Below the pieces are notes generated by a model. The model saw only the letters and a program-made list of their open reading frames with translations. It searched no databases and was not told the DNA's origin. Shown piece by piece: positions 9,364 through 48,147 of a DNA stretch of 64,000 bases. This stretch comes from a bacterium (lineage in GTDB: Bacteria; Ratteibacteria; UBA8468; B48-G9; JAFGKM01), in contig JALNXB010000003.1 of the NCBI GenBank assembly GCA_023230585.1, positions 22,060 to 86,059 on the forward strand. The letters are read 5' to 3'. Position 1 is the stretch's first letter. Each line of letters opens with the position of its first letter. A program made the translations under genes and the position numbers.

Positions 9364-9410
9364 CTCCTCCTATTGCTCATATTTTAAGGTGTTTGAAAGA
9401 TTTTTGTTTT

Positions 9411-10736: not shown

Positions 10737-10947
10737 TTATACCAATATTATCTTATAATAATCTATTATTTATCCTTATAATTTAGACTCTACTTGCTTT
10801 TTTGTCAAATATTCCTTCCTTACTTTAAAAGGAAAACAGGAATCCCCCTTAAACAGGTACGGTTAAGTTTGCAAACAATAGTGGAGAGTAGAAAAGAGGG
10901 TATAAAAGAGTGGAAATAGCAATAATTGTAATAAGGAAATAAAAGAT

Positions 10948-12729: not shown

Positions 12730-13291
12730 AAATAGGTGCGATATTTTAATATCAGGAGTTGGGGGTCAAGGTATTCTTTTATGTTCAGATATACTTGGGG
12801 AGGCTTCTATTTATGAAAACCTTCCAGTAAAAGGTGCTGAAGTTCATGGTATGGCACAAAGAGGCGGTTCAGTTGAAGCTCACGTGCGTATAGGTTGTTC
12901 TTATGGACCTATGATACCTCTTGGTAAAGCAGATATACTATTAGCAATGGAACCTCTTGAAGGTGCAAGGTATTCTTACTATTTGAAAGAAGGTGGGTTT
13001 GCAGTAGTAAATACTAGAAGAATCCCTCTGCTCGGAGAAGAGTATGATATTGAAAAGACGCTCTCAATTATAAGAGAAAAAACATCAGATATTATAGCAG
13101 GGGATTTTTTTAACTCAGTTCAGAAGGTATCTTCCGGTAAAGCATTAAACATTTTTATGTTAGGTATAGCGTCATCTAAAATACCACTCAAAAAAGAGTC
13201 TTTACTGTTAGCAATAGAAAAGAACGTAAAAGAAAAATTTGTTCAGATGAACCTAATGGCTTTTGAGGAAGGAATTAAAATAGGTACCTAA
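12719..13291 (+). CDS. iorB: Indolepyruvate:ferredoxin oxidoreductase beta subunit
   Basis: 190 aa. ILISGVGGQGILLCSDILGEA is the POR-gamma/IorB Rossmann-like signature. The start overlaps the iorA stop by 11 nt. Confidence 0.75.
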   Translation: METKNRCDILISGVGGQGILLCSDILGEASIYENLPVKGAEVHGMAQRGGSVEAHVRIGCSYGPMIPLGKADILLAMEPLEGARYSYYLKEGGFAVVNTRRIPLLGEEYDIEKTLSIIREKTSDIIAGDFFNSVQKVSSGKALNIFMLGIASSKIPLKKESLLLAIEKNVKEKFVQMNLMAFEEGIKIGT

Positions 13292-31557: not shown

Positions 31558-31615
31558 TAGCAACTCCTTAAAATTAGAAACCCCTCCTAAATACACTTTT
31601 TTATAATAAAACAAG

Positions 31616-31689
31616 TACCCCTGGCCCGATTCGAACAGGCGACACACGGTTTAGGAAACCGTTGCTCTATCCATCTGAGCTACAGGGGC
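31616..31689 (-). tRNA. tRNA-Arg (anticodon CCT)
   Basis: The reverse complement reads GCCCCTGTAGCTCAGATGGATAGAGCAACGGTTTCCTAAACCGTGTGTCGCCTGTTCGAATCGGGCCAGGGGTA. It has a cloverleaf with a D-arm GCTC/GAGC, an anticodon stem ACGGT/ACCGT with loop TTCCTAA (anticodon CCT), and a T-arm GCCTG-TTCGAAT-CGGGC. A 7-bp acceptor stem has a G1:U72 wobble. No encoded CCA. Confidence 0.8.
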
Positions 31690-31799: not shown

Positions 31800-32030
31800 T
31801 ACAGATAGAAACGAAGGTTATTCCTCGGAGGTACTCGGACAAGACACAGTAGGAGAGGAATGTAAAGATTGTCCCTTATATGTCATTCCGGATTTATCCC
31901 AGCTTTTGCCTTCTACCCTTGGGGGAGAGGGATTAAGGGTGAGGGGGCTATAGAGAGGTTAATGGGATGAGTTTTATCCCTCGGGGATACTCTGGACAAG
32001 TCGCCGAAGGCGAAAAGGGATTGGGACATC
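31800..32030. repeat. Modular intergenic repeat, copy R5 (reverse-complement orientation)
   Basis: gggctatagagaggttaatgggatgagttttatccctcggggatactctggacaagtcgccgaaggcg is the reverse complement of modules B and D. tatgtcattccggatttatcc is an A-like module. Immediately downstream of the tRNA. Confidence 0.6.
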
Positions 32031-32676: not shown

Positions 32677-34630
32677 CTAGCGTGAGTTTCCCACTTTCAT
32701 AACATAAAATAATACAAAATTAAGTAAGGATAAGGGTTTCCGCTTATTTTTTATGTATATACTAAAATAAATAATTAAAACAATATTATATACTCTTAAA
32801 ATGCTTGTTATTAAAAAGAATAAAAATATATTTGACAAAATAAAAAGGTATGTATATACTAATGTTATTATGGCAACATTACAGAAGAAAAAAGTAAATG
32901 GCAATGAATACTGGTATATAGTGGAATGCAGAAGGATTAATGGCAAACCTCAACCTGTTGTGCTTGAATATATAGGCAAGGTAGAGAATTTATTGAAACG
33001 TATTGAACAACAACGTGATAGAACAGTGAAGAGTTTTTCTCACGGCGCAGTATTGGGGTTATTAAATGCAAGTAAAGAGATAGAATTGCTGAACATACTT
33101 AATAAATATTTTCCTAAACAGAAGCGGGATGGGCTTAGCGTTGGACAGACCATCTTACTGGGAGCAATTCACCGGGTTGTCAAACCTGCAAGCAAGAGAA
33201 GTTTTAGTCAGTGGGTAGAGACCACCACTTTGCCTGAACAATGGGGTTTTGATGTGCGACGGATAACCAGTCAGCATTTCTGGGACCAGATGGATAAAAT
33301 AAGACAAGAAGATATAGAAAAGATAGAGGAGGAGATAATCAGGACGGTAGATAAGAAATATAGGTTAAACTGGTCTATATTGTTTTACGACAGCACAAAC
33401 TTTTATACTTATATTAATACCAGCAACTCAAAGAATACCATCGGGCAACGAGGCAAAAATAAACAGAAGAGAGATGACCTACGGCAATACAATCTCGCTC
33501 TTTTAACCACGAAAGATTTTTTTCTACCCATTTTTTCGTATATCTATCAGGGTAACAAGAATGATGTTTCTATCTTTCCTGAGTATTTGGAAAAAATGCT
33601 GCAAAGGTTGAAAAGCATTGTCGGGCAGGTTGAAGAAATAACGCTTGTTTTTGACAAGGGCAATAACAGCTCGAAAGGAATGGACATATTAAAGGAAAAG
33701 AAACTTGGGTATGTGGGGACACTCTCTATTTATTCTCATTCTGACTTAATAAAAATCCCTTATAAAAAATATGAACAAATAGAATTAGCGGACGGTAAAA
33801 AGGTTCTCGTCCACAGAGCTGAAAAAGAATTATGGGGTAAAGAGCACAGGATAATAATTAAGAGAAGCGAAAAACTAAAAGACGGACAGATAAGAGGTTT
33901 CTTTTTAGATATAGATAAAAAAGTCAATTCCCTGGAGTTGTTGAAGGAAAAGCTGAATTCGCCTGGTGCAAGAAAAAGAAACAAAGAACAGCTTCAAGAA
34001 CAGATAAGCAAGATTATTTCTGGAAAGCTGCTCAAAGGAGTTATAAAGGTAGAAATAAAAGAATCTGCAGAGAATAAAAGTGGGTTTGATGTATTATGGG
34101 TGATTGATAAAAAAGCCCAGAATAAAATAATAAATGAAGTTTTCGGCAAAAAGATATTTTTCACCAACAGGATGGAATGGACAAACGAAGAAATAATTGA
34201 AGCATATCATGGGCAAAGTAAAATAGAAAGAATATTCAGGCACCTTAAAAATCCATATCATTTTAGTGTACGACCTCAATACCACTGGACTGACCAAAAG
34301 ATAAAAGTACATACCTTCATTTGTCTGCTGGGATTATTGATAAGCGAGCTTTTGAGAAAAAAACTCTTTGACGCCGGTATGAAAATGTCGCTGGAGGAAA
34401 TCATAGAACGATTATCCAATATAAGAAAATCAACCACAATCTATTATACGGGTAAAAAGGGTAGACCAAAGGTTGAAAGCCAGTTGGAATCTATGAGCGA
34501 TATAGAAGAACAAATGTGGAAAATAATACAAAAAACAGCAGTTTAGTATATACAAGTCAAAATTGCTGTGTTATAATTATATCAATGGGTTCGACGCTTT
34601 TTTCCTTCTAAAGTGGGAAACTCACGCTAG
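32677..34630 (+). mobile_element. IS1634-family (IS4 superfamily) insertion sequence, ~1.95 kb, with 21-bp perfect terminal inverted repeats
   Basis: The left end ctagcgtgagtttcccacttt (32677-32697) is the exact reverse complement of the right end aaagtgggaaactcacgctag (34610-34630). A single 581-aa transposase ORF lies inside. Confidence 0.75.
32801..34546 (+). CDS. Transposase, IS1634 family
   Basis: 581 aa. The N-terminal ...KKVNGNEYWYIVECRRINGKPQPVVLEYIGK... matches the characteristic IS1634 N-terminus (gk.Y.Ylv.s.r..gk.rq..l.ylG). Size and single-ORF organisation fit IS1634. The alternative start is MATLQKK (32870). Confidence 0.7.
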   Translation: MLVIKKNKNIFDKIKRYVYTNVIMATLQKKKVNGNEYWYIVECRRINGKPQPVVLEYIGKVENLLKRIEQQRDRTVKSFSHGAVLGLLNASKEIELLNILNKYFPKQKRDGLSVGQTILLGAIHRVVKPASKRSFSQWVETTTLPEQWGFDVRRITSQHFWDQMDKIRQEDIEKIEEEIIRTVDKKYRLNWSILFYDSTNFYTYINTSNSKNTIGQRGKNKQKRDDLRQYNLALLTTKDFFLPIFSYIYQGNKNDVSIFPEYLEKMLQRLKSIVGQVEEITLVFDKGNNSSKGMDILKEKKLGYVGTLSIYSHSDLIKIPYKKYEQIELADGKKVLVHRAEKELWGKEHRIIIKRSEKLKDGQIRGFFLDIDKKVNSLELLKEKLNSPGARKRNKEQLQEQISKIISGKLLKGVIKVEIKESAENKSGFDVLWVIDKKAQNKIINEVFGKKIFFTNRMEWTNEEIIEAYHGQSKIERIFRHLKNPYHFSVRPQYHWTDQKIKVHTFICLLGLLISELLRKKLFDAGMKMSLEEIIERLSNIRKSTTIYYTGKKGRPKVESQLESMSDIEEQMWKIIQKTAV

Positions 34631-34692: not shown

Positions 34693-34902
34693 TTATATCT
34701 TAATAGTAAGCTTCTTGCGTGAATTTGCGATATTTTTCCAAGATATTTCGTTTTCATGTGCTAAGCGATCTAATACAATATCAACGCTTATTCTATGACT
34801 CTTAGCAAAGTTTACGACTTCTTGTTTGTTAGAGTTTTGTAAATAGTCATCATCTTTAGTGGTAGCGAGGATTTCACTTACTATTTTTATAGAAAACCTC
34901 AA
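34693..34902 (-). other. Small ORF (69 aa) carrying a methyltransferase-tail-like block; probable gene remnant
   Basis: Contains ILATTKDDDYLQNSNKQ, encoded by a ~55-nt segment (34821-34875) that is nearly identical to 37878-37933 inside the frameshifted MTase tail ORF. The rest of the ORF is unrelated. Confidence 0.3.
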
Positions 34903-36388: not shown

Positions 36389-37768
36389 TTACTCTATTAA
36401 CTTATAACCTAACCATTTTTCAAAAATTTCTTTATTTTCAACTTTTAATTTTTTAGATTGATACATTTTAGAATAAATTGCTTTAATCTCTGAAATATCC
36501 TCGCTTGTTAATAATCTTTTTTCGAACATCTGATACAATGTATCAGAAATTTTATTTGTTAAAATTAAGGACCTAACATTGGAAATTCTTTCAATAAGAA
36601 AAAATATTTCTGGCTCAGAAATTGACTTGCCTTTGGACCATTGAAAGAAATATTTGAGTGCCTCTGTAATACCATTTACTCTGTTTTCGAAGCGAACTGA
36701 AGATAAGTAAATTTCCAATATTTCTTCTTTTGAACATACTTTTTCAAACCACAGAGCTAAAATTATTTCAACTATTTTTCGCCTAAAAGTTTTATTCATT
36801 TCTTTTATGAACAATGTTCTAACTAATTGCTGAGTAATAGTTGAACCTCCTGAACGACGTTTTTTTCCTATAATACCTAAAATAGCTCTTGCGATTGCTT
36901 TTATGCTAATTCCTTTATGTTTATAAAAACCACGATCTTCGATGAATATTAGATTTTTTTTAAATACTGTTAAATCAATTTTCATACGTTGAGTTTCATA
37001 CACTGCTAATTTAGCTCTGTAGATTACGTATTCAAAATCTTTTACAAGTCCTAAATGAAAACAACTAGCAAGTCTTTTAGCAAGACTTAATACTAATCTT
37101 TCATTTGTATCGTATAATGCGAAACGAAAAGAGAAAGAAATTACAATGACCCACAACATAAGAAAAATAGCAGCAAAGGTTATTTGATTACTTGGAGATG
37201 ACATAATACTAGATAATGAAACGAAATTTTTGATTATATGTGGCAAAATTCCATACAAAAGAATGGTCGAAGTTACACAAATTAGCCAAAAGGGATATGT
37301 AACATACGAAAACCAGCCAGGAAAAAGCTTTATGGCAAATGGATTAGTGGCTCCCTCTATTCTCCAATTAGGTAAAACTAAGTGCTGGGTGCCATAATAC
37401 AAACCTAGCATGTGTCTTAAAATGACAATTTTTCTTGAATCAAAAATTATTGACTTTTGCCTCTCTGCAAAATATCTTACCGTTAACCAAGAAAAAGAAC
37501 AAATTATAAATGTAAGAATTAATAACGTTTGTGTTGATAACGCACCATTAAAAAATTTAGTAGGATTGTGGAGAAAACTTACAGCTATTGAACCGAGCAT
37601 AGCAGATATTACGAGGATAAAATTTGCTGCGTTTAAAAATATTCGTTCTTGAGATTGAATATTTGCGGCACAATTTTCATATTCCTTAAGCAAAATATCT
37701 CTATCCGTAAATTTAGAAGCTGGATAATATTGTTGCCAATCAGCTTCTTTCTCTTTTAATTTGGTCAT
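36389..37768 (-). CDS. Polytopic membrane protein with C-terminal GT51 peptidoglycan-glycosyltransferase (transglycosylase) domain
   Basis: 459 aa. The N-terminal ~230 aa hold at least 6 predicted TM helices. The C-terminal part carries the diagnostic GT51 motifs EDRGFYKHKGISIKAIARA (EDxxFxxHxG) and GGSTITQQLVRTLF (GGSTITQQ), plus RRKIVEIILALWFE and EILEIYLSSVRF...ISEPEIFFL. It lies in an accessory/defense context, not in a cell-wall cluster. Confidence 0.6.
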   Translation of the reverse strand: MTKLKEKEADWQQYYPASKFTDRDILLKEYENCAANIQSQERIFLNAANFILVISAMLGSIAVSFLHNPTKFFNGALSTQTLLILTFIICSFSWLTVRYFAERQKSIIFDSRKIVILRHMLGLYYGTQHLVLPNWRIEGATNPFAIKLFPGWFSYVTYPFWLICVTSTILLYGILPHIIKNFVSLSSIMSSPSNQITFAAIFLMLWVIVISFSFRFALYDTNERLVLSLAKRLASCFHLGLVKDFEYVIYRAKLAVYETQRMKIDLTVFKKNLIFIEDRGFYKHKGISIKAIARAILGIIGKKRRSGGSTITQQLVRTLFIKEMNKTFRRKIVEIILALWFEKVCSKEEILEIYLSSVRFENRVNGITEALKYFFQWSKGKSISEPEIFFLIERISNVRSLILTNKISDTLYQMFEKRLLTSEDISEIKAIYSKMYQSKKLKVENKEIFEKWLGYKLIE

Positions 37769-37773
37769 AAATT

Positions 37774-37956
37774 TTAGGTTGAAGATTCATTTTCGATGGT
37801 TTGGATTTCTTCTTCGGTTAGGTCGTGGAGTTTATAGACAAGTTGGTCGATTTGTTTTTCGTATTCTTTAACTTTTGCTTGTTTGTTAGAGTTTTCTAAA
37901 TAGTCATCATCTTTAGTAGTAGCAAGGATTTTAGAATTATTCAAATCAATCTTCAT
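37774..37956 (-). other. Displaced C-terminal tail of the adjacent methyltransferase gene (separated by a +1 frameshift)
   Basis: The 60-aa ORF ends ...EKQIDQLVYKLHDLTEEEIQTIENESST. This is the canonical C-terminal tail of type IIG/Eco57I/PglX-class MTases (...IDrLVYeLYgLTeEEIkiVE). Its start overlaps the MTase stop (37946), and the frames differ by one nucleotide around ggaaatgaagattgattt (rc). Confidence 0.5.
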
Positions 37957-40900
37957 TTCCTAATAACCTAAACTCTAGTTCATAATTTTTTACAAATCTC
38001 AATTCTTCTTGACTAAGCCCATACAGGGGCGCAATGTAATCATCGATTCCATCAATATATTTTTTTGATTTGCTTATTTTATACTCCTTGAAGGAATCTA
38101 TATTTGCATAATTCCTTGTTGTTCTTATGCGCGCATTTTCTTCAACGCTTTTTAGATAAGTGACGTATAACTCTTTAATTTTTTTGATATTTTCCTTGCT
38201 TATTTTATTTAGGGGAATTGGAAATGATTCAACCTCGTACGATTTTAGATTTAAGTTATCGGAATAAATCTGATAAAACCAAAAAAATAAATTACTACTT
38301 AAAATTGCCCCCACAATGTCAGCTATCTCACTATCAAAACATATTTTTCTTTCCGCGGAAGAACCCGTAGAGTAGTTCGTAACGACTTTGAAATATCGCC
38401 CTCCAGCAAAACGATAATATATTGGTTTACCGCTGTCGTTTAAAAGATCTTTAATTTTTATTTTTAATTTGAGCAATTTTTTCAACATATCGATTTCGAT
38501 AGGTAAGCCAATTTTAGGATACCTTCCTCTAAGCTTATAATCTTTTACGTCTATAAATTGAAGGTTCTTCAATAAGTTAGCTAAATCAAATCTTTTTCCT
38601 TTCCTATACATTTTTGTTGTCATAATCTGCTCATTTCTTGCAAGCGTCTTAATAAAAAAAAGAATAGCTGTATTTACAACAGAATTTTCAAATATAGGCT
38701 GTGGTCTAACAGCGTAAGATGAAATTTTGATAATCCTGCAGTTTTCTTCCAAAAGTTCGTGTATATTTGCCATCGAATCGCTAGAAGTTATAGATATCGG
38801 TAATATGAAATTGAGACTGCCATTCTTTATTAGAATATTAAAGCCCATTTCAGTAAATATGACAAAGGTATCTGTAGAACCCCTTTGTCCTTCATAAGTT
38901 TTTGTGCTTTTATAGCGCATTTTAAAGAACTCTTTTTCCTGATTCGAATATTTAGCTCCATACGGCGGGTTTCCAATAACTATATCAAAACCACCTTTTT
39001 CAAAGACTTCTGCAAAGTAGAGTTTCCAGAGGAAAAACGGTCGTGTTTTATTCTTGCTGGTAAATTCTCGAAGTTGTTTTTCTATATTTTCTAAATCAAA
39101 GCCGGTTTTTTTAGAAAGTTTTTGTTTTTCTTTCGATATTTGTTCTTCGCGTGTTTTCTTGTTAGGAAGTATCTCATATTTCCTTTCAATGTCTTCTATT
39201 TGTCTAAAATAACCTGCTTTCTGTTTTTTTATTTTTGATTCAAAGATTTTTATCATCAAATCTTCCACTTCTTGTTTTAATTTATTTTTTTTATGTCTGT
39301 CGGATTCATTTTGAAAATCAAATTTCTTTTGCTCAAATTCTTTAATAATAGAGTCTGCCTTTTCTTCAAATCCCAACCCTGTCTGCTCTTTTTCTTCTCC
39401 GTTTTCTTTATCAAAATCTATCCCAAGAAATTCAGAAATCAGACTATTGCCCTGCATAATTTTAAAATCAAGGTTTGGCAATGCTTCAATCCCATAGTTT
39501 TCTTTTGTTTCATCAATTTTTTCATCTACAAGAAGAGAAATGAAGAAGCGTAGTTTAGTTATTTCTACAGCGATTTGCTGAATATCCACGCCGTAAATAC
39601 ATTTTTGTATTAAGTATAGTTTACGTCCATAGTCAGCATTTTTGTCTTTGAAGAATTCTTCAATCTGCTGTTTTGCAATTTTGCTGACCTGTAGGTCTGG
39701 TATTTTATTTGCGGCTGCGAGTTGTGCCTGTTTCCATAATTCGTTGTCAGGGTCAATTTTACCAAGGATAAATACCATCTTGTTAAGTGCGCCCATTGGA
39801 AAAGCACCTGAACCCACAGCCGGGTCAACAATTCTAACGCTTTCAATTAGTTCCGCAAGTTCTTTAGATTCAGATTTATTAAAAGGGTTTTCCTCTTTTT
39901 CTTTTGAAAACAAGGTGTCAAGTTTCCCGTCAATATTGTCTATTTCTGAAAGGTGTGTCTTGAAATACGCTTTAAGCGATTCTACAACCATATAATCAAC
40001 AATTTCTCTTGGAGTATAATAACTGCCGGTAGCTTTGCGAGCGGTAGTGGATGTCTCAGGATTAAAACTTGCCAGAAGATTTTCAAAAACCCTGCCCAGA
40101 AGTTCTGGGTCAAGAGCAATATCTGCATCGTCTGGAGAGTTTTCGTCAATAGTAAAGTTAAATGAAGATAAAATATTCAAAAGTCCCTGTACCTTATAGT
40201 TCTTGTTTTTAGTACCATAATCAGAGTTTAAGTCAATATTTTGCTCATCGCTGAAGAATAGAAAATTCGGGACACTCGGTTGATATTCTTGTTTTCTTTC
40301 AGTAAAACCATCTATGTAAATATCATTTGTACCATCATCGAGACAGTCAAACAGCCCACCGTTAAGAAACGGAATATTTCCAAAATATTCTTCCATTTTT
40401 TCAGAGTTTGTAAAAAGGTCATGGTAACGATATACGTATTGATTGCTGAAATCGGGATTATATCCTTTATACCCACGTATTTCGCTTCTGAACTGTCGTT
40501 CGCCTTTTTTGGTATTTAAGGTAGCGAAAAACAGGTTTTGCAAGATTGCCCGATAGTAAGTTGAATCGTCAGAATCAATGTTTTTAAGAATTCCATTGAT
40601 ATTTTCTTTTTCAAACAGTTCTTTTGGCATCAAACCTTTTTCCCGCATAAACCAGATAAAAATCATTCTTGTTATTAGCCGGATAATAGCAACATTCCTA
40701 CCATTATCTTCTACCTCGGCATCCTTGGGGAATCTGGAATTCTTAACCGCCCAGAAATACCAGTAAGCTATATCTTGGTAAAATTCCTTAGTAACCTTTT
40801 CTACAGAAAAAATTTCCTTAATTTTTTCCAGAGAAGAAAAATTACCTTCAGAAATTCTTTGAAGAAATGTTTTATTTGTAAGATCTTTACTTACAAAATA

Positions 40901-41287
40901 GGTAAAGCGGCGGAAAGCGCTCCAATCACGACGTTTACCCAGATAGTTTGCGTAGATTAAACTGAAACGAAAGTTGCCATTTTTATCATAAAAAATAAAA
41001 ATACCTGCATCGGTCTGGGTCTCTTTAAGGATTTTCTTACCCAGTTCATACTGTACTTTTTTCCCTGCTCTTTCTGTTAGAGGTTTTTTAACAGGCAACG
41101 AACATACTATTAGGTTTCCATCTTCAAAATCAATTTCTTCCAATTTGGTGCCCTGTCCGAAGTTATCATCCTCGTGACGCAGAGACTCATTGGGATGGCG
41201 GAATTTATCATTCGCCTCACGAAAAAACCTTATGAATTTTTCTTCATTAAAATTGTTAATAATATCCTGGAGAATTTGTCTTTTCAT
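37946..41287 (-). CDS. Gamma-class N6-adenine DNA methyltransferase with N-terminal helical domain and C-terminal target-recognition region (type IIG/PglX-like)
   Basis: 1113 aa. AdoMet motif I is DPAVGSGAFPMGAL. Catalytic motif IV is IVIGNPPYG, with a long coiled-coil insertion between motifs I and IV. The N-terminal region carries ...ILQNLFFATLNT...RYHDLF...IPFLNGGLFD, blocks typical of Eco57I/MmeI/PglX-type enzymes. The C-terminal ~300 aa is TRD-like. The start overlaps the stop of the PLD-SNF2 gene by 4 nt. Confidence 0.75.
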   Translation of the reverse strand: MKRQILQDIINNFNEEKFIRFFREANDKFRHPNESLRHEDDNFGQGTKLEEIDFEDGNLIVCSLPVKKPLTERAGKKVQYELGKKILKETQTDAGIFIFYDKNGNFRFSLIYANYLGKRRDWSAFRRFTYFVSKDLTNKTFLQRISEGNFSSLEKIKEIFSVEKVTKEFYQDIAYWYFWAVKNSRFPKDAEVEDNGRNVAIIRLITRMIFIWFMREKGLMPKELFEKENINGILKNIDSDDSTYYRAILQNLFFATLNTKKGERQFRSEIRGYKGYNPDFSNQYVYRYHDLFTNSEKMEEYFGNIPFLNGGLFDCLDDGTNDIYIDGFTERKQEYQPSVPNFLFFSDEQNIDLNSDYGTKNKNYKVQGLLNILSSFNFTIDENSPDDADIALDPELLGRVFENLLASFNPETSTTARKATGSYYTPREIVDYMVVESLKAYFKTHLSEIDNIDGKLDTLFSKEKEENPFNKSESKELAELIESVRIVDPAVGSGAFPMGALNKMVFILGKIDPDNELWKQAQLAAANKIPDLQVSKIAKQQIEEFFKDKNADYGRKLYLIQKCIYGVDIQQIAVEITKLRFFISLLVDEKIDETKENYGIEALPNLDFKIMQGNSLISEFLGIDFDKENGEEKEQTGLGFEEKADSIIKEFEQKKFDFQNESDRHKKNKLKQEVEDLMIKIFESKIKKQKAGYFRQIEDIERKYEILPNKKTREEQISKEKQKLSKKTGFDLENIEKQLREFTSKNKTRPFFLWKLYFAEVFEKGGFDIVIGNPPYGAKYSNQEKEFFKMRYKSTKTYEGQRGSTDTFVIFTEMGFNILIKNGSLNFILPISITSSDSMANIHELLEENCRIIKISSYAVRPQPIFENSVVNTAILFFIKTLARNEQIMTTKMYRKGKRFDLANLLKNLQFIDVKDYKLRGRYPKIGLPIEIDMLKKLLKLKIKIKDLLNDSGKPIYYRFAGGRYFKVVTNYSTGSSAERKICFDSEIADIVGAILSSNLFFWFYQIYSDNLNLKSYEVESFPIPLNKISKENIKKIKELYVTYLKSVEENARIRTTRNYANIDSFKEYKISKSKKYIDGIDDYIAPLYGLSQEELRFVKNYELEFRLLGNED

Positions 41288-44200
41288 AATTTTTGATTTT
41301 CAATAGCAACAATAATTTCTTTAGTTAAATTCTTTTGTTGGAATTTCTCTCTTTCAAGATAATCAGCACCAAGTTTATCTTTCAAAGCATAGATTTCTTT
41401 GAGAGATTGGTTAAGTTGTTTTTCTGTGCTGCTTTCAAAGTTGGCTATCCTTCGCAATGTATAATCCGGCAATGTGCCATAATCGGTAATATCTTCAAGC
41501 AGTACTTTTAAGAAATTTTTTACCAGTTGTATTTCTTCTGTATGGTTTCTATATATAAGTGTCTTAAGGTTGTTCTTGGCTTGTTCTTCCAAACTTCGTT
41601 CAGTTGGCGGTCCTACTCTGTGATCCCTGAAGTTTTTTATACTTTCATAAGCACTCCAAAACTTTGCTCCGAGTTCTAACGGTTCTTCGTCAGGTTTACA
41701 CAGAATTTTATTGTAGGATTCTTCAAAAGTTGCCTGAAAAAAGGTATCTTTCTCTTCCTGCTTGTATATGGTTCCATGAATATACAGTCTGCCTTTTTTA
41801 AGAAAGACCAATAGTTCATCTGTATCAGCTTTTTTTGCCACTTTTATACGTGGAGGGAAAGTTTCCAAAGCAGCAATTAGACCTGGATTTTCTTTTTTTA
41901 TTCTTATAAACTCTTTTAAAGCCTTTGTATAAAAACTTTCTTCTTCCAGTTTGTCGGGATTTTGTTGCATTTTGTTATATAATTTGGCAGGAGACGGTTC
42001 TTCGTCAATAGCAAATATTTTAGAATCTTCACCGAGAGTATTATGAATCAAAAACATTTTATTGCTGGCAATCTCCCTTGCTTGTACCAATTCTGCCCCC
42101 TGTTCAGTAGGAAAGAAGTTGACGATAAAAAGTTTGTCAAACACTTTTTTACTTATTCGGTTGATACGTCCCAACCGTTGAATAATGCGAACAGGATTCC
42201 ATGGAATATCATAATTGATGACAATACCAGAACGGTTTAGGTTAAAACCTTCTGAAATTTTATCTGAAGATAACAAGATATCAAAATCATCTTTCTGTTC
42301 AGAGAAGGAAGCGTCAAAATTTGTGTTTATTGCAGATAGGTTTTTTGCTGTCAGGTCACCAGCAATAACCAGCAACCTATCGCCAAAGACTTTTTTAATA
42401 TGTGGTTCAAGATATTTCACTGTATCAAGATATTCGGAAAAGATAACAATTTTTCTGTTGGGCTCTTTTTTTAGTTGAGATTCAAGGTTTTTAATCAAAC
42501 AAGATGTCTTGGGATCATTTCTGACCAGATTAAATTTATTCAGAGAATCAAGAATTTCATTGAAAAGCTTCAGGTCAGATTTTATGTCTTCTATAAATTC
42601 ATCTCTATACTTAAAGTCAGCCAGTTTATAAACTTTATGGTTTTTAGGATACTCGCCTGCGTTGATTTTTTTCGTATATTCGTCCAGATGTTCTTCAATC
42701 TCTTCTGGTTCTTTGTCGTATATTCGTTCAAGCAAACTTCTATCCAGTATATATTTGCCTGTTCGCTCAATGAATGTTAAGACTGATTCAGCAATACGTT
42801 TGAAGTTTTTAAGACTTTGTTCAAAGGAGCCGAACGAACTTTCAAATCTTTTTACCAGCAACCGGCGCATAAAATCGTATAGATTACGTTGGGAATAAAA
42901 TTCAAAATTTTCTTTATCAGACAGTTTTTCTCCCACAATTTTTTCTTTTGCCGTTTCGTATTCAAAAGGCCTGTAAATCGCTCCCTTAAACATTCCGCCG
43001 TTATCAGGGTCGCCAAAGTATAATTTGATTACATTGTCATAAAGAACAGATTGTTCCTTTGTCAGTTCAAAGAACCATTCTTTAGGGTCGGCAACCTTAG
43101 ACAGATTTTTTACTTCTTTGTTATAATCTGGGTTTTCTTCCAAATCTAAACGATTGCGTCGAATAGTTACGGGTTCTATAACATCTCGTATCTGTTTTGC
43201 CAGATATTTTGAACGTCTTGCTACTTTTTCCAAACCAGAGACAACATCAAATTTTTCTCCAAAAAATGTTTTGTAATCACTATGTGCTTTACTACGTTTT
43301 TGCTGGTTTGTTGCATTCCAGTGTTTCTTGATATAACCGAGTCGGTCAAAAGAACCTTTGAAAGACTTGAAGCGATCAACAAGACTGTTTTCCATGGTTA
43401 TTGATGATTTCTTTGGAGTGATAAATAGTTTGAGAAGTGATAAAATGTCACCTGGGCGGTTGTTGAACGGAGTAGCAGTAAGAAGCATTACTAATTTGTT
43501 ACGACAGATATTTTTTAAATATTCATAACTCTCCGTATCTTGGTTTCTGAACCGATGTGCTTCGTCAACTATAACAACCTCTACATCTTTGGTTTTCTTT
43601 ACAAATTCCTGAAGTTTTTCCAAATCACCGAGAGACCATACCTCCCAGTCATATAAACCAAATTGCTCTTTATACATATTCCAGCCGGAATCTTTTTTTC
43701 TGGGGTCTCCCATAATACCGGGCGGGCAGATTATTACTCCTCTTTTCCGCAATTCTTTGGCAACGGAACAAGCAATAATAGTTTTACCCAGCCCTACAAC
43801 GTCAGCAAGAATAACACCATTGTTGTTTTCTATTATTGCTAATGCTTGGCGAATAGCATCCAATTGATATTGATAAGGTATATAGCCGTTGTCTTCGAGA
43901 GTTTTGATAAGAGATTGCCCAATTTCTCTTTTTTCAAAAGAATCAAGGTATATTTTCAGAATAAGAACAAACGCTTCAAATGGAGTGATTTTTTTGACTA
44001 GGGTTTCTTTTTCAACAAGTTCTATCAATCTTTTCTTAAGATCTGTATTTTCGGTAATTTTGACCGCTTCGTTCCATAAGGTATCATAGTATTCTTCAGC
44101 ACTTTCAAAACCGTAATCGCTGATTTCAACGTTAAACTCTTCTTGAGTAGTAAGCCCTAAACCTGTAAGGTTACTGCTACCGGTGATGAAGAGATTTTGG

Positions 44201-44649
44201 CGTCCTACCTGCTCATCCTGCAATTTGAATATGTATAGTTTCGCATGGTTAGGATGGAAGGTCTTTCTTATAATGAGCCGATTACTTTTTATAAGGTCCA
44301 TAAAAAACTTGACTTGTATGTAAAATTCTTTGGTGTCAAACTTTTCAGTGTTAATGGATTTTTTTATGGATTCAAAAAACCTTTGGCTTATTTCTTCATT
44401 AGATAAACGACCGCTGTGATCATCTAAATCAGCATACTCAACCAATTGAAAATTTAATTTATCAACATTGAGACCAACCAGGACTTTAAGTATTACTTTG
44501 GGGTTTTGCTTGAGTTCAGAGCAAAGTTCCCTTATACCAGAGAAATAAAAAAAACCGACCAAAAATTTTAATTCATCACTTTTGCTTATCAGTTTAACCA
44601 GTCGTTTTTTTAGGTTTTCTGCACCACTATTGGTTATGAAATTTTTCAT
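41284..44649 (-). CDS. PLD-family nuclease domain fused to SNF2-family (SF2) helicase/ATPase
   Basis: 1121 aa. The N-terminus has a single PLD HKD-type motif HAKLYIF...ITGSSNLT (HxK...GSxN). The SNF2 motifs are motif I ADVVGLGKTIIA, motif II VVIVDEAHRFRN (DEAH), motif III LLTATPFNN and motif VI IIQRLGRINR. The 3' end overlaps the MTase start (translational coupling). Confidence 0.75.
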   Translation of the reverse strand: MKNFITNSGAENLKKRLVKLISKSDELKFLVGFFYFSGIRELCSELKQNPKVILKVLVGLNVDKLNFQLVEYADLDDHSGRLSNEEISQRFFESIKKSINTEKFDTKEFYIQVKFFMDLIKSNRLIIRKTFHPNHAKLYIFKLQDEQVGRQNLFITGSSNLTGLGLTTQEEFNVEISDYGFESAEEYYDTLWNEAVKITENTDLKKRLIELVEKETLVKKITPFEAFVLILKIYLDSFEKREIGQSLIKTLEDNGYIPYQYQLDAIRQALAIIENNNGVILADVVGLGKTIIACSVAKELRKRGVIICPPGIMGDPRKKDSGWNMYKEQFGLYDWEVWSLGDLEKLQEFVKKTKDVEVVIVDEAHRFRNQDTESYEYLKNICRNKLVMLLTATPFNNRPGDILSLLKLFITPKKSSITMENSLVDRFKSFKGSFDRLGYIKKHWNATNQQKRSKAHSDYKTFFGEKFDVVSGLEKVARRSKYLAKQIRDVIEPVTIRRNRLDLEENPDYNKEVKNLSKVADPKEWFFELTKEQSVLYDNVIKLYFGDPDNGGMFKGAIYRPFEYETAKEKIVGEKLSDKENFEFYSQRNLYDFMRRLLVKRFESSFGSFEQSLKNFKRIAESVLTFIERTGKYILDRSLLERIYDKEPEEIEEHLDEYTKKINAGEYPKNHKVYKLADFKYRDEFIEDIKSDLKLFNEILDSLNKFNLVRNDPKTSCLIKNLESQLKKEPNRKIVIFSEYLDTVKYLEPHIKKVFGDRLLVIAGDLTAKNLSAINTNFDASFSEQKDDFDILLSSDKISEGFNLNRSGIVINYDIPWNPVRIIQRLGRINRISKKVFDKLFIVNFFPTEQGAELVQAREIASNKMFLIHNTLGEDSKIFAIDEEPSPAKLYNKMQQNPDKLEEESFYTKALKEFIRIKKENPGLIAALETFPPRIKVAKKADTDELLVFLKKGRLYIHGTIYKQEEKDTFFQATFEESYNKILCKPDEEPLELGAKFWSAYESIKNFRDHRVGPPTERSLEEQAKNNLKTLIYRNHTEEIQLVKNFLKVLLEDITDYGTLPDYTLRRIANFESSTEKQLNQSLKEIYALKDKLGADYLEREKFQQKNLTKEIIVAIENQKL

Positions 44650-44855: not shown

Positions 44856-45104
44856 TTATGTGCTAAGGGAAGAAATGTTTGAAATGATTTTATCGGCGAA
44901 TTTAAGTGCAGTAGTTCCTTGTGCTTCTATAGCTACAGACCAACTTTTATAATAATCTGCTTTTACTCGCAAATCTTTGAGACGATCTAAATTTATTCCG
45001 ACCTCTCTTTTCTTTATATCACTACTTAAACAAAATTCATTACTAACAAATAAATGGCTATTTATTGAGGGAATAATTTCGCCTTCTTTATCTTTTCCTC
45101 TCAA
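44856..45104 (-). CDS. Small hypothetical protein (82 aa), possibly a HEPN-like fragment
   Basis: Isolated ORF in a 600-bp gap between the defense genes and the GH42-like gene. It carries LRVKADYY, weakly resembling R-x4-H/Y HEPN-type motifs. Too short for a confident call. Confidence 0.2.
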   Translation of the reverse strand: MRGKDKEGEIIPSINSHLFVSNEFCLSSDIKKREVGINLDRLKDLRVKADYYKSWSVAIEAQGTTALKFADKIISNISSLST

Positions 45105-45267
45105 GGGTAGAAAGCAAAAGTGTAAAGGAGAAGGATTTTTTAGTACTTGAATAGGGAATACGGAAGCGTTTTATTTTTCTTAGTTTCTTTATAAACTATT
45201 AGTATCTTTTAGTAATAAATAGTAATATAATAGATATCATTCCAGCCCGTTAAACAATGGAGGGAAA

Positions 45268-48147
45268 ATGAAATATATACAGCAACTTGAACCTGAACCA
45301 CCTCAACCTGAAGAAAAAGATTGGGGATTTATTAAAATTCTAAGTGAACCTCTACATCAACCTTTCAAATGGAAAAGACTCAAAGCAAAGGAGAGAGAAG
45401 CCTCTCTTAAATACGGAGTCAAAATCATCAACAAGTTCCCTGATAAAGAAGGATTGCTAGAAACTGCATTTGAAGATTTTAAGAGGTTTTTTGAATGCGG
45501 AGAAATATCTGTAGAAGGTACCTTTCCCATTGTTATAAAAAAAGTTAAAACATCTACATTTGAAGAGTATATTATCCTTATTAAAAAAGATAAAATAGAA
45601 GTGCAGGCAGGGGATACTGAGGGGATAAGGAGAGGATTGGTATATCTTGAGGACGAACTTTTGCGTTCGGGAGGACCTTTTCTCAAGTATGGTAAAATAA
45701 AGCGCACCCCTGTTATAAAAACTCGTATATCAAGATGTTGTTACGGACCTATAAACCGCCCTCCTAAAAATAGGGATGAACTTAATGATGATATAGACTA
45801 CTACCCAGATGAGTATCTCAACAGACTCGCTCATAATGGAGTAAACGGGTTATGGTTAACGATTACTTTCGCAGATACTGTTCCCTCTAAAATCATACCT
45901 GAATATGGCAAAAACTCAGAAAAACGGCTCAAAAAATTAAGGGCTACTGTTGACAAATGTAGGCGTTACGGAATAAAAATTTACCCTTTCTGTATTGAAC
46001 CAATAGCTTTTGCTATAGGTGACCCTATGATAAAAAAATATCCTGAACTTCAAGGGCACAACAATAATGCTTTTTCTTATTTCTGCACTTCTACTGATAA
46101 AGGGAAAGCATATATAAAAGAATCAATATACAACTTATTTAGTAGCGTTCCTAACCTTGGAGGTCTCATAAATATTTCAGTAGGAGAACGACCTACAAAC
46201 TGTTATGCAGGTACCTCGTTAAATAATAACTGTCCTTTATGTAGTAAAAGGGAGCCGGCAGAGGTTGTTTCCGAAATGCTTTCTATTATGGCAAAAAGTA
46301 TGCATAAAGCCAACCCTTCAGCCCAACTGATTTCTTGGCATTACAGTCAGTACGTAGGTTGGGGCGAAAAAGCAACAGAAGAAGCTGCTGGTAAAATGCC
46401 AAAAAACATTGTTCTTCAATTTAACTTTGAGTCTGCAGGGAGAACAGAACAACTCGGTAAGGTAAGATATGCAGGGGATTACTGGCTTTCTTATGTAGGA
46501 CCAAGCAATCTATTCAAAAAATGTGCTATAAATGCAGTCAAAGCAGGGACACCTATTTTTGCTAAAATACAGGTAAGTTGTTCGCATGAAGTGGCTACTG
46601 TACCTTGGATTTCAGTCCCGAGTTACCTCTACCGTAAATTTAAATCTATGCATAAATTAGGCGTTACCGGGGTAATGGAATGCTGGTTTTTTGGAGCATA
46701 CCCAGGGCTTATGACAAAAGCAGCAGGAGAACTTTCGTTTGCGCCGTTCCCAAAAAATGAAGATGTTTTTTTAAAAAAACTGGCAGGTTGCTGGTGGCAA
46801 GCAGATACTGCAAAAACTGTTGAAGCGTGGGAATTGTTTAGAGACGCTTATTCCAATTACCCAGTAAACGCTATGTTCGGGTATTATGGACCAATGCACG
46901 ACGGACCTGTATGGCCACTACATCTGAAACCACAAAACAAGCCTCTTGCTCCCACCTATCTAATAAATTACCCGCCAAGCGGAGACAGAATAGGGCAGTC
47001 TTTCACTTTTACTCACACCATCCCTGAAATATTGAGTTTATGCAAAAATATGTCTGAAGAGTGGAATAAAGGTGTAAAAATATTAAAAAAAGAGTTGGTT
47101 AAAAATCAAGGCAACATTGATATTGAAGAAAAGTTGAGGGTAGATGAAGCTCTCGGAATACAGTTTGAGAGCGGGTACCATATTCTTAGGTTTTATGACC
47201 TACGTGAAAAACTTTTTGAGATGGAAGGTCTAAAGCGGTTAAATATTCTCAAACAGATGAAACAGATTGTAGTTGATGAACTTGATAGAAGCAAACAACT
47301 TTTAGAACTTACAAAAAAAGACCCTCGTTTGGGTTTTCACGCAGAAGCTGAAGGTTATAAATATTTTCCTGAAAAAATTTTATGGAGGATGAAGTGGCTT
47401 GAACAAGTTCTTAAAGAAGATTTTCCTTATGTAGAAAAAGAAATTAAAAAAGGTAACTTGTTGTTCCCTGAATATACGGGTAAAAAACCTCCACCTCCTG
47501 TTTATAGATGCAAGGAAATCTCTAAAACAATCAGAGATAAAACTGAATCTATAATTGACAACCTCCTTGAAGAAAACCTGCCTTTCTGGTTCTATTTTGA
47601 TAAGACAAAAAAAGAGTTTAAACCTGAAACTGGTAAATTTGTGCAGAAATATAAGACTTTCTGGAAGGCTTTTTGCATTGAAGATGCTCTAAATTTTATT
47701 GTCAAATGCCAGACACCAAATATAGCAACTCTACAAGTAAAAGGGAAGCAAGAGTTTGAGTATATTGAAACTGTTCAAATACAGATAGAGACCAGACGGC
47801 TCTTCCCTCCTTCTAATTTCGTTGTTGATTCTAAAGGAGAGAAAAATTTAAGAAATATTGCTCACGGAAATTACACCCAAAAAGATTCTTTATGGAATGT
47901 TACAGTTAAGGTAGAAAACGACTCTTGGACTGCTTTTTTTCGAATACCTTACAAGTGTTTACCTCATACAAGCGATAGGTACAGGTTAAATATCGTTAGA
48001 GGTGTATCAAAAAAAGAAGGAGAAAGAGGACTTTTTAAAAGTTATATAAACAAGTGGATAGATTACAAAACACTTCCAAAAAATTTACTTGCTTTTGGCA
48101 GAGAAGACCCTGCTTACAATTTCGGTTGGTTGATAAAAGATGAATAG
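45268..48147 (+). CDS. GH42-like glycoside hydrolase (TIM barrel with Cys-rich Zn-site-like motif) with N- and C-terminal extensions; C-terminus CBM9-like
   Basis: 959 aa with no signal peptide. DYYPDEYLNRLAHNGVNGLWL resembles the GH42 N-terminal YYPE.W......G.N.V block. FSYFCTSTDKGKAYIKE and NCYAGTSLNNNCPLCSKREPAEVV line up with the GH42 Cys-cluster (HYCFSSP.../C....CYCPRCQ). The C-terminal W/Y-rich block resembles the CBM9-like domain of the 1401-aa protein. Confidence 0.4.
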   Translation: MKYIQQLEPEPPQPEEKDWGFIKILSEPLHQPFKWKRLKAKEREASLKYGVKIINKFPDKEGLLETAFEDFKRFFECGEISVEGTFPIVIKKVKTSTFEEYIILIKKDKIEVQAGDTEGIRRGLVYLEDELLRSGGPFLKYGKIKRTPVIKTRISRCCYGPINRPPKNRDELNDDIDYYPDEYLNRLAHNGVNGLWLTITFADTVPSKIIPEYGKNSEKRLKKLRATVDKCRRYGIKIYPFCIEPIAFAIGDPMIKKYPELQGHNNNAFSYFCTSTDKGKAYIKESIYNLFSSVPNLGGLINISVGERPTNCYAGTSLNNNCPLCSKREPAEVVSEMLSIMAKSMHKANPSAQLISWHYSQYVGWGEKATEEAAGKMPKNIVLQFNFESAGRTEQLGKVRYAGDYWLSYVGPSNLFKKCAINAVKAGTPIFAKIQVSCSHEVATVPWISVPSYLYRKFKSMHKLGVTGVMECWFFGAYPGLMTKAAGELSFAPFPKNEDVFLKKLAGCWWQADTAKTVEAWELFRDAYSNYPVNAMFGYYGPMHDGPVWPLHLKPQNKPLAPTYLINYPPSGDRIGQSFTFTHTIPEILSLCKNMSEEWNKGVKILKKELVKNQGNIDIEEKLRVDEALGIQFESGYHILRFYDLREKLFEMEGLKRLNILKQMKQIVVDELDRSKQLLELTKKDPRLGFHAEAEGYKYFPEKILWRMKWLEQVLKEDFPYVEKEIKKGNLLFPEYTGKKPPPPVYRCKEISKTIRDKTESIIDNLLEENLPFWFYFDKTKKEFKPETGKFVQKYKTFWKAFCIEDALNFIVKCQTPNIATLQVKGKQEFEYIETVQIQIETRRLFPPSNFVVDSKGEKNLRNIAHGNYTQKDSLWNVTVKVENDSWTAFFRIPYKCLPHTSDRYRLNIVRGVSKKEGERGLFKSYINKWIDYKTLPKNLLAFGREDPAYNFGWLIKDE

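Follow-up and report, generated by a model that had tools for sequence, protein, structure and literature searches.

A two-gene cassette pairing an HKD-SNF2 protein with a gamma-class adenine methylase: a candidate ATP-dependent restriction-modification system from Ratteibacteria

An overlapping gene pair and its products

The stretch of DNA analysed here (64,000 nucleotides of contig JALNXB010000003.1, forward-strand positions 22,060 to 86,059, from the Ratteibacteria assembly GCA_023230585.1; hereafter the window) carries on its minus strand two large genes that a first-pass annotation, made from the sequence alone, had proposed as an undescribed ATP-dependent restriction-modification (RM)-like system. 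Gene 1 encodes a nuclease of the phospholipase D (PLD) type fused to a SWI2/SNF2 ATPase, and gene 2, immediately downstream, encodes a gamma-class N6-adenine DNA methyltransferase with its own target-recognition domain (TRD). The coordinates of both genes, of their domains and of other features of the locus are collected in Table 1. At the junction (AAATTATGAAAAGA) the ATG of gene 2 (41287-41285) overlaps the TGA of gene 1 (41286-41284) by 4 nt. Chance open reading frames (ORFs) are excluded, because both genes are intact, exceed 1100 codons in DNA of 33% G+C and have thousands of homologues each; the gene pair is real. The sizes, strand and overlap given in the annotation agree with the ORFs and the junction sequence, and the motifs that it quoted are all present (HAKLYIF...GSSNLT, GLGKT, DEAH, TATPFNN and QRLGRINR in gene 1; LNGGLFD, DPAVGSGAF and NPPYG in gene 2). 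The extent that it assigned to the system, 37774-44649, takes in both genes but also includes a separate 60-amino-acid (aa) ORF at 37774-37956, the methylase ending at 37946.

Table 1. Features of the gene pair and of the surrounding island (positions are those of the window)
Feature	Position	Strand	Details
Gene 1, HKD(PLD) nuclease-SWI2/SNF2 ATPase fusion	41284..44649	-	1121 aa; ATG start; NCBI MCK9265546.1, "SNF2-related protein"
PLD/HKD nuclease domain	44050..44649	-	~aa 1-200; single HxK...GSxN at aa 135-162 (44164-44247)
SNF2 ATPase core	42010..43887	-	~aa 255-880; motifs I GLGKT, II DEAH, III TATP, VI QRLGRINR
C-terminal domain of gene 1	41287..41952	-	~aa 900-1121; beta-sheet and helical bundle (AlphaFold2 model)
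ATGA start/stop overlap of genes 1 and 2	41284..41287	-	From sequence
Gene 2, gamma-class N6-adenine DNA methyltransferase with own TRD	37946..41287	-	1113 aa; ATG start; NCBI MCK9265545.1
Methylase N-terminal domain	40805..41287	-	aa 1-161; alpha/beta, family-specific
Helical spacer and catalytic domain	38798..40804	-	Spacer aa 162-470 with LNGGLFD block; catalytic aa 471-830
Methylase motifs	38960-38971 (motif IV)	-	I, DPAVGSGAF, aa 488-496; IV, NPPY, aa 773-776
TRD, exchangeable specificity module	37949..38797	-	aa 831-1113
Relic ORF	37774-37956	-	60 aa; directly after gene 2, overlaps methylase stop
Transgly-domain membrane protein	36389-37768	-	459 aa; N-terminal half multi-pass membrane; peptidoglycan glycosyltransferase domain without transpeptidase domain
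Insertion sequence (IS) element	32677-34630		Perfect 21-nt terminal inverted repeats, 32677-32697 / 34610-34630
DDE_Tnp_1 transposase of IS element	32801-34546		581 aa
tRNA-Arg(CCT)	31615-31689		Next to island
ORF upstream of gene 1 (...LDRLKDLRVKADYYKSW...)	44856-45104	-	82 aa; no family match
Divergent ORF	45268-48147	+	959 aa; overlaps start of NamZ exo-muramidase gene

A Pfam scan of the full-length gene 1 product recovered SNF2-rel_dom (7.5e-14), Helicase_C (2e-16) and ResIII, with PLD scores just below their cut-offs (PLDc_2, 24.5 versus 27; RE_NgoFVII, 23.2 versus 23.8); when the first 240 aa were scanned alone both cut-offs were cleared (RE_NgoFVII, 28.6 versus 23.8; PLDc_2, 27.7 versus 27). 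H135, K137, G157, S158 and N160 are invariant in an alignment of 40 homologues, and a single HxK...GSxN motif per protein is present in all 50 full-length helicases obtained from independent genome loci. The SNF2 motifs GLGKT, DEAH, TATP and QRxGRxxR are likewise invariant in the homologue alignment and occur in 86-100% of the locus-derived helicases. The core is bilobed, with a long helical insertion between the lobes (~aa 410-700) that is seen in the AlphaFold2 model, the Pfam matches and the alignment. An hmmsearch against the Protein Data Bank (PDB) matched the SNF2/Rad54 core 1z63, and a Foldseek search of the PDB with the model returned SNF2 remodellers, CSB and RapA (E values 5e-11 to 1e-8). 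By its predicted fold the motor is thus a true Swi2/Snf2 one and not of the DEAD kind found in Type I or Type III enzymes. The C-terminal domain has no Pfam match, and no SRA or other reader domain was found in it. No other part of the helicase varies as much, its mean identity being 52% compared with 67-71% elsewhere. Full-length homologues that are 67-81% identical to gene 1 fall into more than 120 clusters.

The product of gene 2 matches the Pfam families Eco57I (8e-28; 98 bits against a cut-off of 25), N6_Mtase and MmeI_Mtase (28 against 27), with a weak MmeI_hel match in the helical spacer. Residues D488, G492-G494 and N773-P775 are invariant in the homologue alignment, DPxxGSG and NPPY are present in 32 of 32 locus-derived methylases, and a coiled-coil insertion (~aa 620-750) interrupts the catalytic domain. 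The AlphaFold2 model has a predicted local distance difference test score (pLDDT) of 77 and a predicted template modelling score (pTM) of 0.76, and its top Foldseek matches are BREX PglX/BrxX (8c45, 9ewz; 1.4e-12), CamA, BsaXI, DrdV, MmeI and LlaBIII; MmeI gives the highest query-normalised template modelling (TM)-score, 0.38, or 0.53 when normalised to the target. In hmmsearch the methyltransferase and TRD regions of CamA, BseCI, PglX and BpuSI are matched, and the matches from a profile search of PDB sequences are confined to about residue 740 onward. The REase_MTase_IIG models are the best PADLOC matches, aligning only from residue 295 onward, and DrmMI is matched in part. Gene 2 is an intact gamma-class methylase that belongs to the PglX/MmeI/Eco57I clade and carries a single TRD at its C-terminus. 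The assignments made in the annotation thus agree with our searches, both for the methylase (Pfam, Foldseek and the conservation profile described below) and for the single-HKD PLD domain with a complete SNF2 core in gene 1 (Pfam on the isolated N-terminus and the invariant motifs).

The first 161 aa of the methylase have no Pfam or PDB sequence match. A sequence scan found no MmeI_N or other nuclease match in this region even at E=5, the fold search having been made with the whole model only. The domain contains no invariant acidic residue and no (D/E)xK triad, its best-conserved acidic residues, E72 and D101, forming none, although R73, K77, Q79, Y80, R107 and R127 are invariant. Among 1.84 billion representative proteins only 353 matches to the domain were recovered, all of which place it at the start of proteins ~1.0-1.27 kaa long or of their fragments. 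With no family match, no triad and these 353 exclusively N-terminal occurrences, the domain is a signature of the gene 2 methylase family and is probably not an active nuclease. An active nuclease in this region was accordingly disfavoured on the missing triad and family match, the fold searches covering the whole model.

Linkage, spread and covariation of the two genes

To follow the pair across genomes one genome per species was scanned, which yielded 71 loci with a helicase 52-83% identical to gene 1. These come from more than 20 phyla, including Patescibacteria, Omnitrophota, Elusimicrobiota, Nitrospirota, Planctomycetota, Acidobacteriota, Bacteroidota and Chloroflexota; Spirochaetota, Cloacimonadota, Caldisericota, Actinomycetota, Pseudomonadota and one DPANN archaeon are among the further carriers. 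Where at least 2.5 kb of downstream sequence is available, a same-strand methylase follows the helicase in every locus (45 of 45); when the limit is lowered to 0.5 kb the count is 52 of 54. When the search was seeded with the methylase instead, an HKD-SNF2 gene was found directly upstream in 9/9 cases (L077, L078, L080, L082 and L083-L087). This neighbourhood conservation, together with the ATGA overlap, bears out the two-gene nature and translational coupling that the annotation had proposed.

All-against-all clustering of the 755 ORFs of at least 100 aa found within 8 kb on either side of the 71 loci revealed only two families that recur across loci, namely the helicase, present in 71 loci, and the methylase, present in 53. 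No third conserved gene was found in these neighbourhoods, the remaining clusters being antisense ORFs within the pair or embedded and neighbouring genes present in at most six loci. Genes for DUF499, DUF3780, DUF1998/YprA (DrmA/B), PglZ and BrxC are absent within the same distance in the 71 loci and from the window. The pair moves as a cassette, since an identical pair is found in different and unrelated chromosomal contexts (L085 as compared with L086 and L087). The methylase of L085-L087 (gene 9001-12831, P0157) is a 1276-aa allele with a weak match to Y1_Tnp (PF01797) inside the Eco57I region. The joint inheritance of a methylase and a nuclease (45/45 and 9/9) together with a diversifying specificity module (the TRD mosaicism described below) is the general feature of RM systems, and the pair is on these genomic grounds a conserved, mobile and autonomous two-gene RM-like module.

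Across Ratteibacteria, Elusimicrobiota, Patescibacteria, Kapaibacteria and TA06 the helicase is 67-81% identical over 1121 aa, which is unusually high for a defence gene and implies recent and wide horizontal spread under strong purifying selection. Carriage of the pair by phages was considered and rejected, only two genuine matches having been found among 2.9 million viral contigs.

The two genes are separated by 0-42 nt in 24 of 37 related loci, and in 12 of the 37 they enclose variable cargo of ~0.5-1.4 kb on the same strand, which encodes YhcG/DUF1016 nuclease, RhuM, DUF4143-AAA, DUF4062+HATPase_c_4+Fic-like, MNT, PIN, NYN or DUF3800 proteins. Loci with cargo between helicase and methylase are L003, L006, L008-L012, L014, L017-L022, L024, L028, L045, L053 and L055. 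Payne et al. 2024 describe genes embedded in the same orientation as characteristic of operons for Type I RM, BREX, DISARM and Hma, and the cargo genes are candidate defence genes by "guilt-by-embedding". Other defence-type modules adjoin related cassettes, for example a SIR2 and DUF87/HerA pair in L083 (1-2782) and an AAA_15/AAA_21 ATPase and DUF3226 pair in L084 (12855-14602).

Sequence identity of the helicase follows that of the N-terminal part of the methylase (rho 0.86, n=37) more closely than that of the methylase core (0.36), and within the helicase the strongest covariation with the methylase is shown by the C-terminal domain (rho 0.72-0.76, n=20). This covariation weakly suggests direct contact between the two proteins, although their physical linkage on the DNA could give rise to it as well.

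Exchange of the specificity module

Column conservation along the methylase ranges from 0.55 to 0.86 and drops to 0.33-0.5 past ~aa 830. Among 114 full-length methylase homologues, the 99 with the closest cores (60-80% identity) have a TRD without detectable similarity to that of the window. The remaining 15 share the TRD type of the window at 23-70% identity, 13 of them at 52-70%, yet most of these have far more distant cores, down to 46% identity. Since close cores carry unrelated TRDs and distant cores share one, the TRDs are swapped between alleles by recombination, much as happens in HsdS, MmeI-family and PglX proteins.

The 60-aa ORF that follows gene 2 provides a second indication. It matches profile positions 1208-1246 of the 1247 in PADLOC REase_MTase_IIG (E 2e-7) and its translation fits the C-terminal consensus of the methylase family (KVKxYExxIDxxVYxL..LTxEEI). 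It is what is left of the C-terminal 40-47 aa of another, Type IIG-like methylase allele, and thus the footprint of a TRD replacement. TRD mosaicism and the relic 3' end together indicate selection for changing specificity. Invertible TRD cassettes and phase-variable repeats were absent from the window, in which only a direct 54-nt repeat and the relic 3' end were seen, and from L074 and L114.

The two copies of the direct 54-nt repeat (34821-34874 and 37878-37931) are 94% identical and encode ILATTKDDDYLxNSNKQ, once in the 60-aa relic and once in a 69-aa ORF (34693-34902). They flank a 3-kb block that holds the Transgly-domain protein gene and ORFs of 107, 61 and 159 aa, the last with a D...EVK nuclease-like motif. 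This block may be an insertion into, or a duplication of, the old methylase 3' end.

Comparison with named systems

With either protein, none of the Pfam, NCBIfam and PADLOC models reaches the family cut-off for a named system, and the pair therefore has no such assignment, as the annotation had expected. The NCBIfam model for DISARM DrmD (NF038317) gives 155 bits where 610 are required, the "phospholipase D-like anti-phage protein" model (NF042964) 98 against 1100 and in the Helicase_C region only, DpdE 89 against 500, and the BREX PglX equivalog models 31 against 400 and 22 against 900. The PADLOC matches to DrmD, BrxH (BrxHI/BrxHII), HmaA and DrmMI are partial, and PLD_Helicase matches gene 1 at aa 692-843 only. 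Assignment of the pair to a named system was rejected, all of these matches being partial or below threshold.

The closest published architecture is that of the Type-2 DUF499-centred BREX-related (BR) system (PMC12839542), which is the same as MANTIS or Gao_RL, composed of MtsA-D (bioRxiv 10.64898/2026.09.23.753747). Its HKD-SNF2 effector was missed in the annotation, in which NgoAVII/CglI and DISARM DrmC and DrmD had been named as the nearest relatives. MtsD has an N-terminal HKD domain and an SF2/Snf2 ATPase and forms a dimer that shares one PLD site (bioRxiv 10.64898/2026.09.23.753747). The window pair has the same kind of effector, with a single N-terminal HKD domain and a Swi2/Snf2 ATPase of superfamily 2 (SF2), and is likewise RM-like and ATP-dependent by prediction; in both cases the effector gene adjoins an N6-adenine methylase that would supply the sequence specificity. 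In contrast, MANTIS requires MtsA, a DUF499 AAA+ loader of the ORC/Cdc6 clade, and the small MtsB (bioRxiv 10.64898/2026.09.23.753747), which is given as DUF3780 in PMC12839542 but as DUF3870 in the bioRxiv report and is found in 98% of Type-2 BR loci. Neither MtsA nor MtsB is encoded with the window pair or at the 71 loci. Moreover, MtsC is an alpha-class methylase with DPPY and a central TRD (bioRxiv 10.64898/2026.09.23.753747), whereas gene 2 is gamma-class, with motif I before NPPY, a C-terminal TRD and the PglX/MmeI fold. Membership in MANTIS was rejected on the absence of MtsA and MtsB and the difference in methylase class, and the scores do not support orthology of gene 1 with MtsD, if NF042964 and PLD_Helicase are assumed to be models of MtsD.

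Type ISP enzymes (LlaGI, LlaBIII) combine a nuclease, an SF2 translocase acting on double-stranded DNA (dsDNA), a gamma-class adenine methylase and a single TRD, as the window pair would, and LlaBIII is among the structural matches of the methylase part. Type ISP enzymes methylate one strand of asymmetric sites and cleave when translocating enzymes collide (PMC3553950, PMC4666363). The window system is however made of two polypeptides instead of one, encoded by separate ORFs of which the first is closed by its own stop codon; a PLD/HKD nuclease takes the place of the Mrr-type PD-(D/E)xK domain, and an SNF2 motor that of the Type I HsdR-like one. No coupler domain such as that of Type ISP enzymes was identified in the pair, and a fused protein of more than 1300 aa was absent from the best 150 of the 353 carriers of the methylase N-terminal domain. 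The annotation was right that the canonical Type ISP architecture is not present, but it dismissed Type ISP too readily, as these enzymes seem to us the best functional analogy for the window pair.

Class 1 DISARM (DrmA, DrmB, DrmC, DrmD and DrmMI) also has a PLD nuclease (DrmC), an SNF2 protein (DrmD) and an Eco57I-like N6-adenine methylase (DrmMI). It differs in that neither the window nor any of the 71 loci has DrmA (YprA helicase) or DrmB (DUF1998) and in that PLD and SNF2 are fused in the window pair, and orthology with DrmD and DrmMI is not borne out by the scores. Seen from DISARM, the pair resembles DrmC joined to DrmD, accompanied by DrmMI. In structure searches the methylase comes closest to BREX PglX/BrxX proteins, and type 3 BREX (BrxHII) and ARMADA (ArmA/ArmB) share a dyad of SNF2 protein and PglX-like methylase with the window, whereas BrxC/PglY, PglZ, BrxA/B and BrxL of BREX types 1-6 are absent and the window helicase bears a nuclease. 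The statement in the annotation that BrxC, PglZ, BrxL, DrmA and DrmB are missing stands, both for the proteins of the window and for the 71 loci. The methylase-TRD body belongs to the same clade as Type IIG/IIL enzymes (MmeI, DrdV, Eco57I and Cj0031) by Pfam, PADLOC and fold, BpuSI included, and in these enzymes too specificity is altered by TRD exchange. Type IIG enzymes need no ATP. Gene 2 differs from them in having no recognisable catalytic nuclease domain in sequence scans and an obligatory partner gene for a predicted ATP-dependent nuclease. Finally, SauUSI (Type IV) and CglI/NgoAVII resemble gene 1 in using an SF2 motor to drive a PLD nuclease. The pair looks like a minimal and unnamed RM system that is related to DISARM, BREX-related systems/MANTIS and Type ISP yet distinct from each. 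It is not categorically new, being a recombination of modules of Type ISP, Type IIG, DISARM and MANTIS.

Proposed mechanism and its alternatives

The reading that we favour, and consider somewhat probable, is that the pair forms a self-contained two-protein ATP-dependent RM system, resembling a Type ISP enzyme that has been split in two genes and assembled from different parts. It is based on intact catalytic motifs that are invariant across the family, on the obligatory linkage of the two genes and on the diversifying TRD; the restriction activity and the individual steps we infer from the behaviour of the families involved. A monomeric methylase would read a short asymmetric site and methylate one adenine on one strand, thereby marking the host DNA. 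BREX PglX/BrxX, MmeI, DrdV and LlaBIII all modify one strand of asymmetric sites. At an unmodified site the methylase would recruit or license the HKD-SNF2 protein, probably through contact between its family-specific N-terminal domain and the variable C-terminal domain of the helicase, and the SNF2 motor would then translocate on dsDNA away from the site, fuelled by ATP. As one HKD motif amounts to half a PLD active site, two HKD domains would have to come together. They might do so in a constitutive dimer, of the kind formed by MtsD and SauUSI, or where two motors converge, and the DNA would then be cut at a distance from the site. Cutting would favour DNA with at least two unmodified sites, probably inverted. 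Such a preference for multiple sites is the known answer to the problem of hemimethylation in Type III, Type ISP and MANTIS systems. Among effectors of the HKD-SF2 type, both MtsD, which acts downstream of a methylase, and SauUSI, which does so downstream of its own TRD, form dimers with a single shared PLD active site.

Whether the pair represents a distinct autonomous class of ATP-dependent RM system, in which an SNF2-PLD motor nuclease takes its guidance directly from a PglX/MmeI-type methylase, without the help of an AAA+ loader or accessory proteins, and the methylase N-terminal domain serves to dock or activate the nuclease, appears to us evenly balanced. Several points weigh against the proposed two-protein mechanism. 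Sequence comparison detects no similarity between the PLD domain of gene 1 and solved PLD nucleases, and the AlphaFold2 model of gene 1 has a pLDDT of 70 and a pTM of 0.40, which denotes low confidence in the arrangement of its domains. The covariation of helicase and methylase was rejected as proof of contact, being inseparable from their genetic linkage. In addition, the MANTIS nuclease was not activated in vitro and the MANTIS methylase needs two extra proteins (bioRxiv 10.64898/2026.09.23.753747), so a system of two proteins may not suffice.

It is unlikely that the methylase is a bifunctional Type IIG/IIL enzyme that cuts with its own N-terminal domain, with the HKD-SNF2 protein as an auxiliary or back-up effector. 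The best PADLOC matches and the highest query-normalised TM-score (MmeI) do point in that direction, as do the filing of Pin17FIII (discussed below) as a Type IIG "RM" enzyme and, in the AlphaFold2 model, an alpha-beta-beta-beta-alpha-beta-like order in the N-terminal 135 aa that is compatible with a PD-(D/E)xK scaffold. However, the IIG models begin to align only at residue 295 or beyond, the N-terminal domain has neither a nuclease match at E=5 nor an invariant acidic residue or (D/E)xK triad, and the obligatory linkage to an HKD nuclease with invariant catalytic residues would be left unexplained. The pair could also be an incomplete module of class 1 DISARM, type 3 BREX, Type-2 BR/MANTIS or ARMADA whose partners lie elsewhere in the genome; dyads of an SNF2 helicase and a PglX-like methylase are part of all these systems, from which the best PADLOC and NCBIfam matches also come (DrmD, BrxHI/BrxHII, HmaA and DrmMI). 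We regard this as quite unlikely, given that none of the partner genes sought lies in the window or within 8 kb at the 71 loci, that the equivalog scores are far under cut-off (DrmD 155/610, PLD anti-phage 98/1100, PglX 31/400), that the cassette alone moves between unrelated contexts and that the alpha-class MANTIS methylase with its central TRD is unlike gene 2.

BREX restricts without detectable cleavage, the MANTIS ATPase is needed for methylase loading, and TRD switching is also known in phase-variable regulators, all of which would be compatible with a system that cuts no DNA, the SNF2 motor loading or remodelling the methylase for BREX-like exclusion or for epigenetic regulation of the phasevarion type. 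The invariance of the HKD catalytic residues in all members examined argues instead for a nuclease that is used, and Pin17FIII, a probable relative, methylates without the helicase; this explanation seems improbable to us. It is highly improbable that the HKD-SNF2 protein is a modification-dependent, SauUSI-like Type IV nuclease that recognises foreign DNA modifications by its C-terminal domain and works independently of the methylase. SauUSI does have the same order of PLD, SF2 ATPase and C-terminal domain, but the C-terminal part of gene 1 holds no SRA or other reader domain, and independence fails to explain either the 45/45 and 9/9 linkage or the start/stop overlap with a TRD-bearing methylase.

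The step that leads from recognition of an unmodified site to destruction of the DNA is open in BREX, DISARM and MANTIS, and a two-protein system with the same kinds of methylase and motor-nuclease would be much easier to reconstitute and to study structurally. If the pair does constitute an autonomous class, it would provide a minimal and biochemically tractable model for the way in which recognition of an unmodified hemimethylatable site is coupled to an effector with an SNF2 motor in the much larger BREX, DISARM, MANTIS and ARMADA systems. The family comprises hundreds of sequence clusters, mostly from uncultivated phyla (CPR/Patescibacteria, Omnitrophota, Elusimicrobiota, Nitrospirota, Planctomycetota and others). 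Defence-finder models probably score the pair only as an orphan Type IIG methylase or as partial DISARM or BREX, in which case it would be under-counted in censuses. Its exchangeable TRDs would also be a source of new adenine-methylation specificities.

Earlier mentions and distant relatives

Full-text literature searches returned no paper that names or tests the pair. To call it "undescribed", as in the first-pass annotation, is nevertheless too strong. Table 3 of Milman et al. 2023 (PMC9881135) contains a Type II RM/Cj0031-like coding sequence adjoining one with PLD cd09178 and SNF. Pin17FIII of Prevotella intermedia 17F, an 1117-aa gene filed in REBASE as "Type IIG", has an "upstream SNF2/RAD54 family helicase" (Johnston et al. 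2017, PMC5608340) and, when expressed alone in E. coli, produces N6-methyladenine at the asymmetric site GGYGAB (PMC5608340). It is a probable relative, its membership of the family being a lead drawn from this description. An uncharacterised "HKD+Snf2" cluster, C3a139, has been on record since 2018 from the vicinity of type III CRISPR loci (PMC6546367), and the PADLOC model of C3a139 has the architecture of gene 1 and spans aa 85-883.

More distant pairs of a PLD-SNF2 gene and an Eco57I-type methylase, with 25-41% identity and in either gene order, are found in Meiothermus/Thermus plasmids, Parabacteroides, Prevotella, Microcystis and a Methanothermococcus plasmid. In the Parabacteroides and Prevotella loci a PLD-SNF2 gene 31-32% identical to gene 1 lies beside a methylase 26-37% identical to gene 2. 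Given these distant pairs, the window pair is a member of one tight clade within a broader unnamed superfamily of PLD-SNF2 proteins paired with Eco57I-type methylases. In the distant cousin on plasmid p1 of Microcystis aeruginosa NIES-2481 (L113, 3574-11904) the methylase comes first, a nucleotidyltransferase and SLATT pair is embedded between it and the PLD-SNF2 gene, and a MotA/ExbB-like gene follows. Two plasmid loci, L075 from Lactococcus and L076 from E. coli (pHH194M-140K), encode an SNF2-related protein, DUF4391, a site-specific DNA methyltransferase and a DEAD/DEAH helicase. They were rejected as relatives, as this is a different four-gene cluster that shows ~25% identity on the SNF2 core only and leaves the PLD region unmatched.

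The surrounding island

The annotation had placed the pair in an island typical of defence, and the island context is borne out by the IS element, the tRNA-Arg gene and gene fragments in the vicinity. The Transgly-domain membrane protein encoded downstream was rejected as a part of the system, having no homologue in any related locus. The same applies to the divergent 959-aa ORF, a homologue of which is absent from all related loci and which has no Pfam or PADLOC match. The 82-aa ORF upstream of gene 1 looks like a fragment of a bigger gene. A 35-nt imperfect inverted repeat (31903-31937 and 45086-45120, 77% complementary), of which these are the only two copies in the window against 0.07 expected, flanks the entire 13-kb low-GC island beside tRNA-Arg(CCT), and its two copies may mark the island boundaries.

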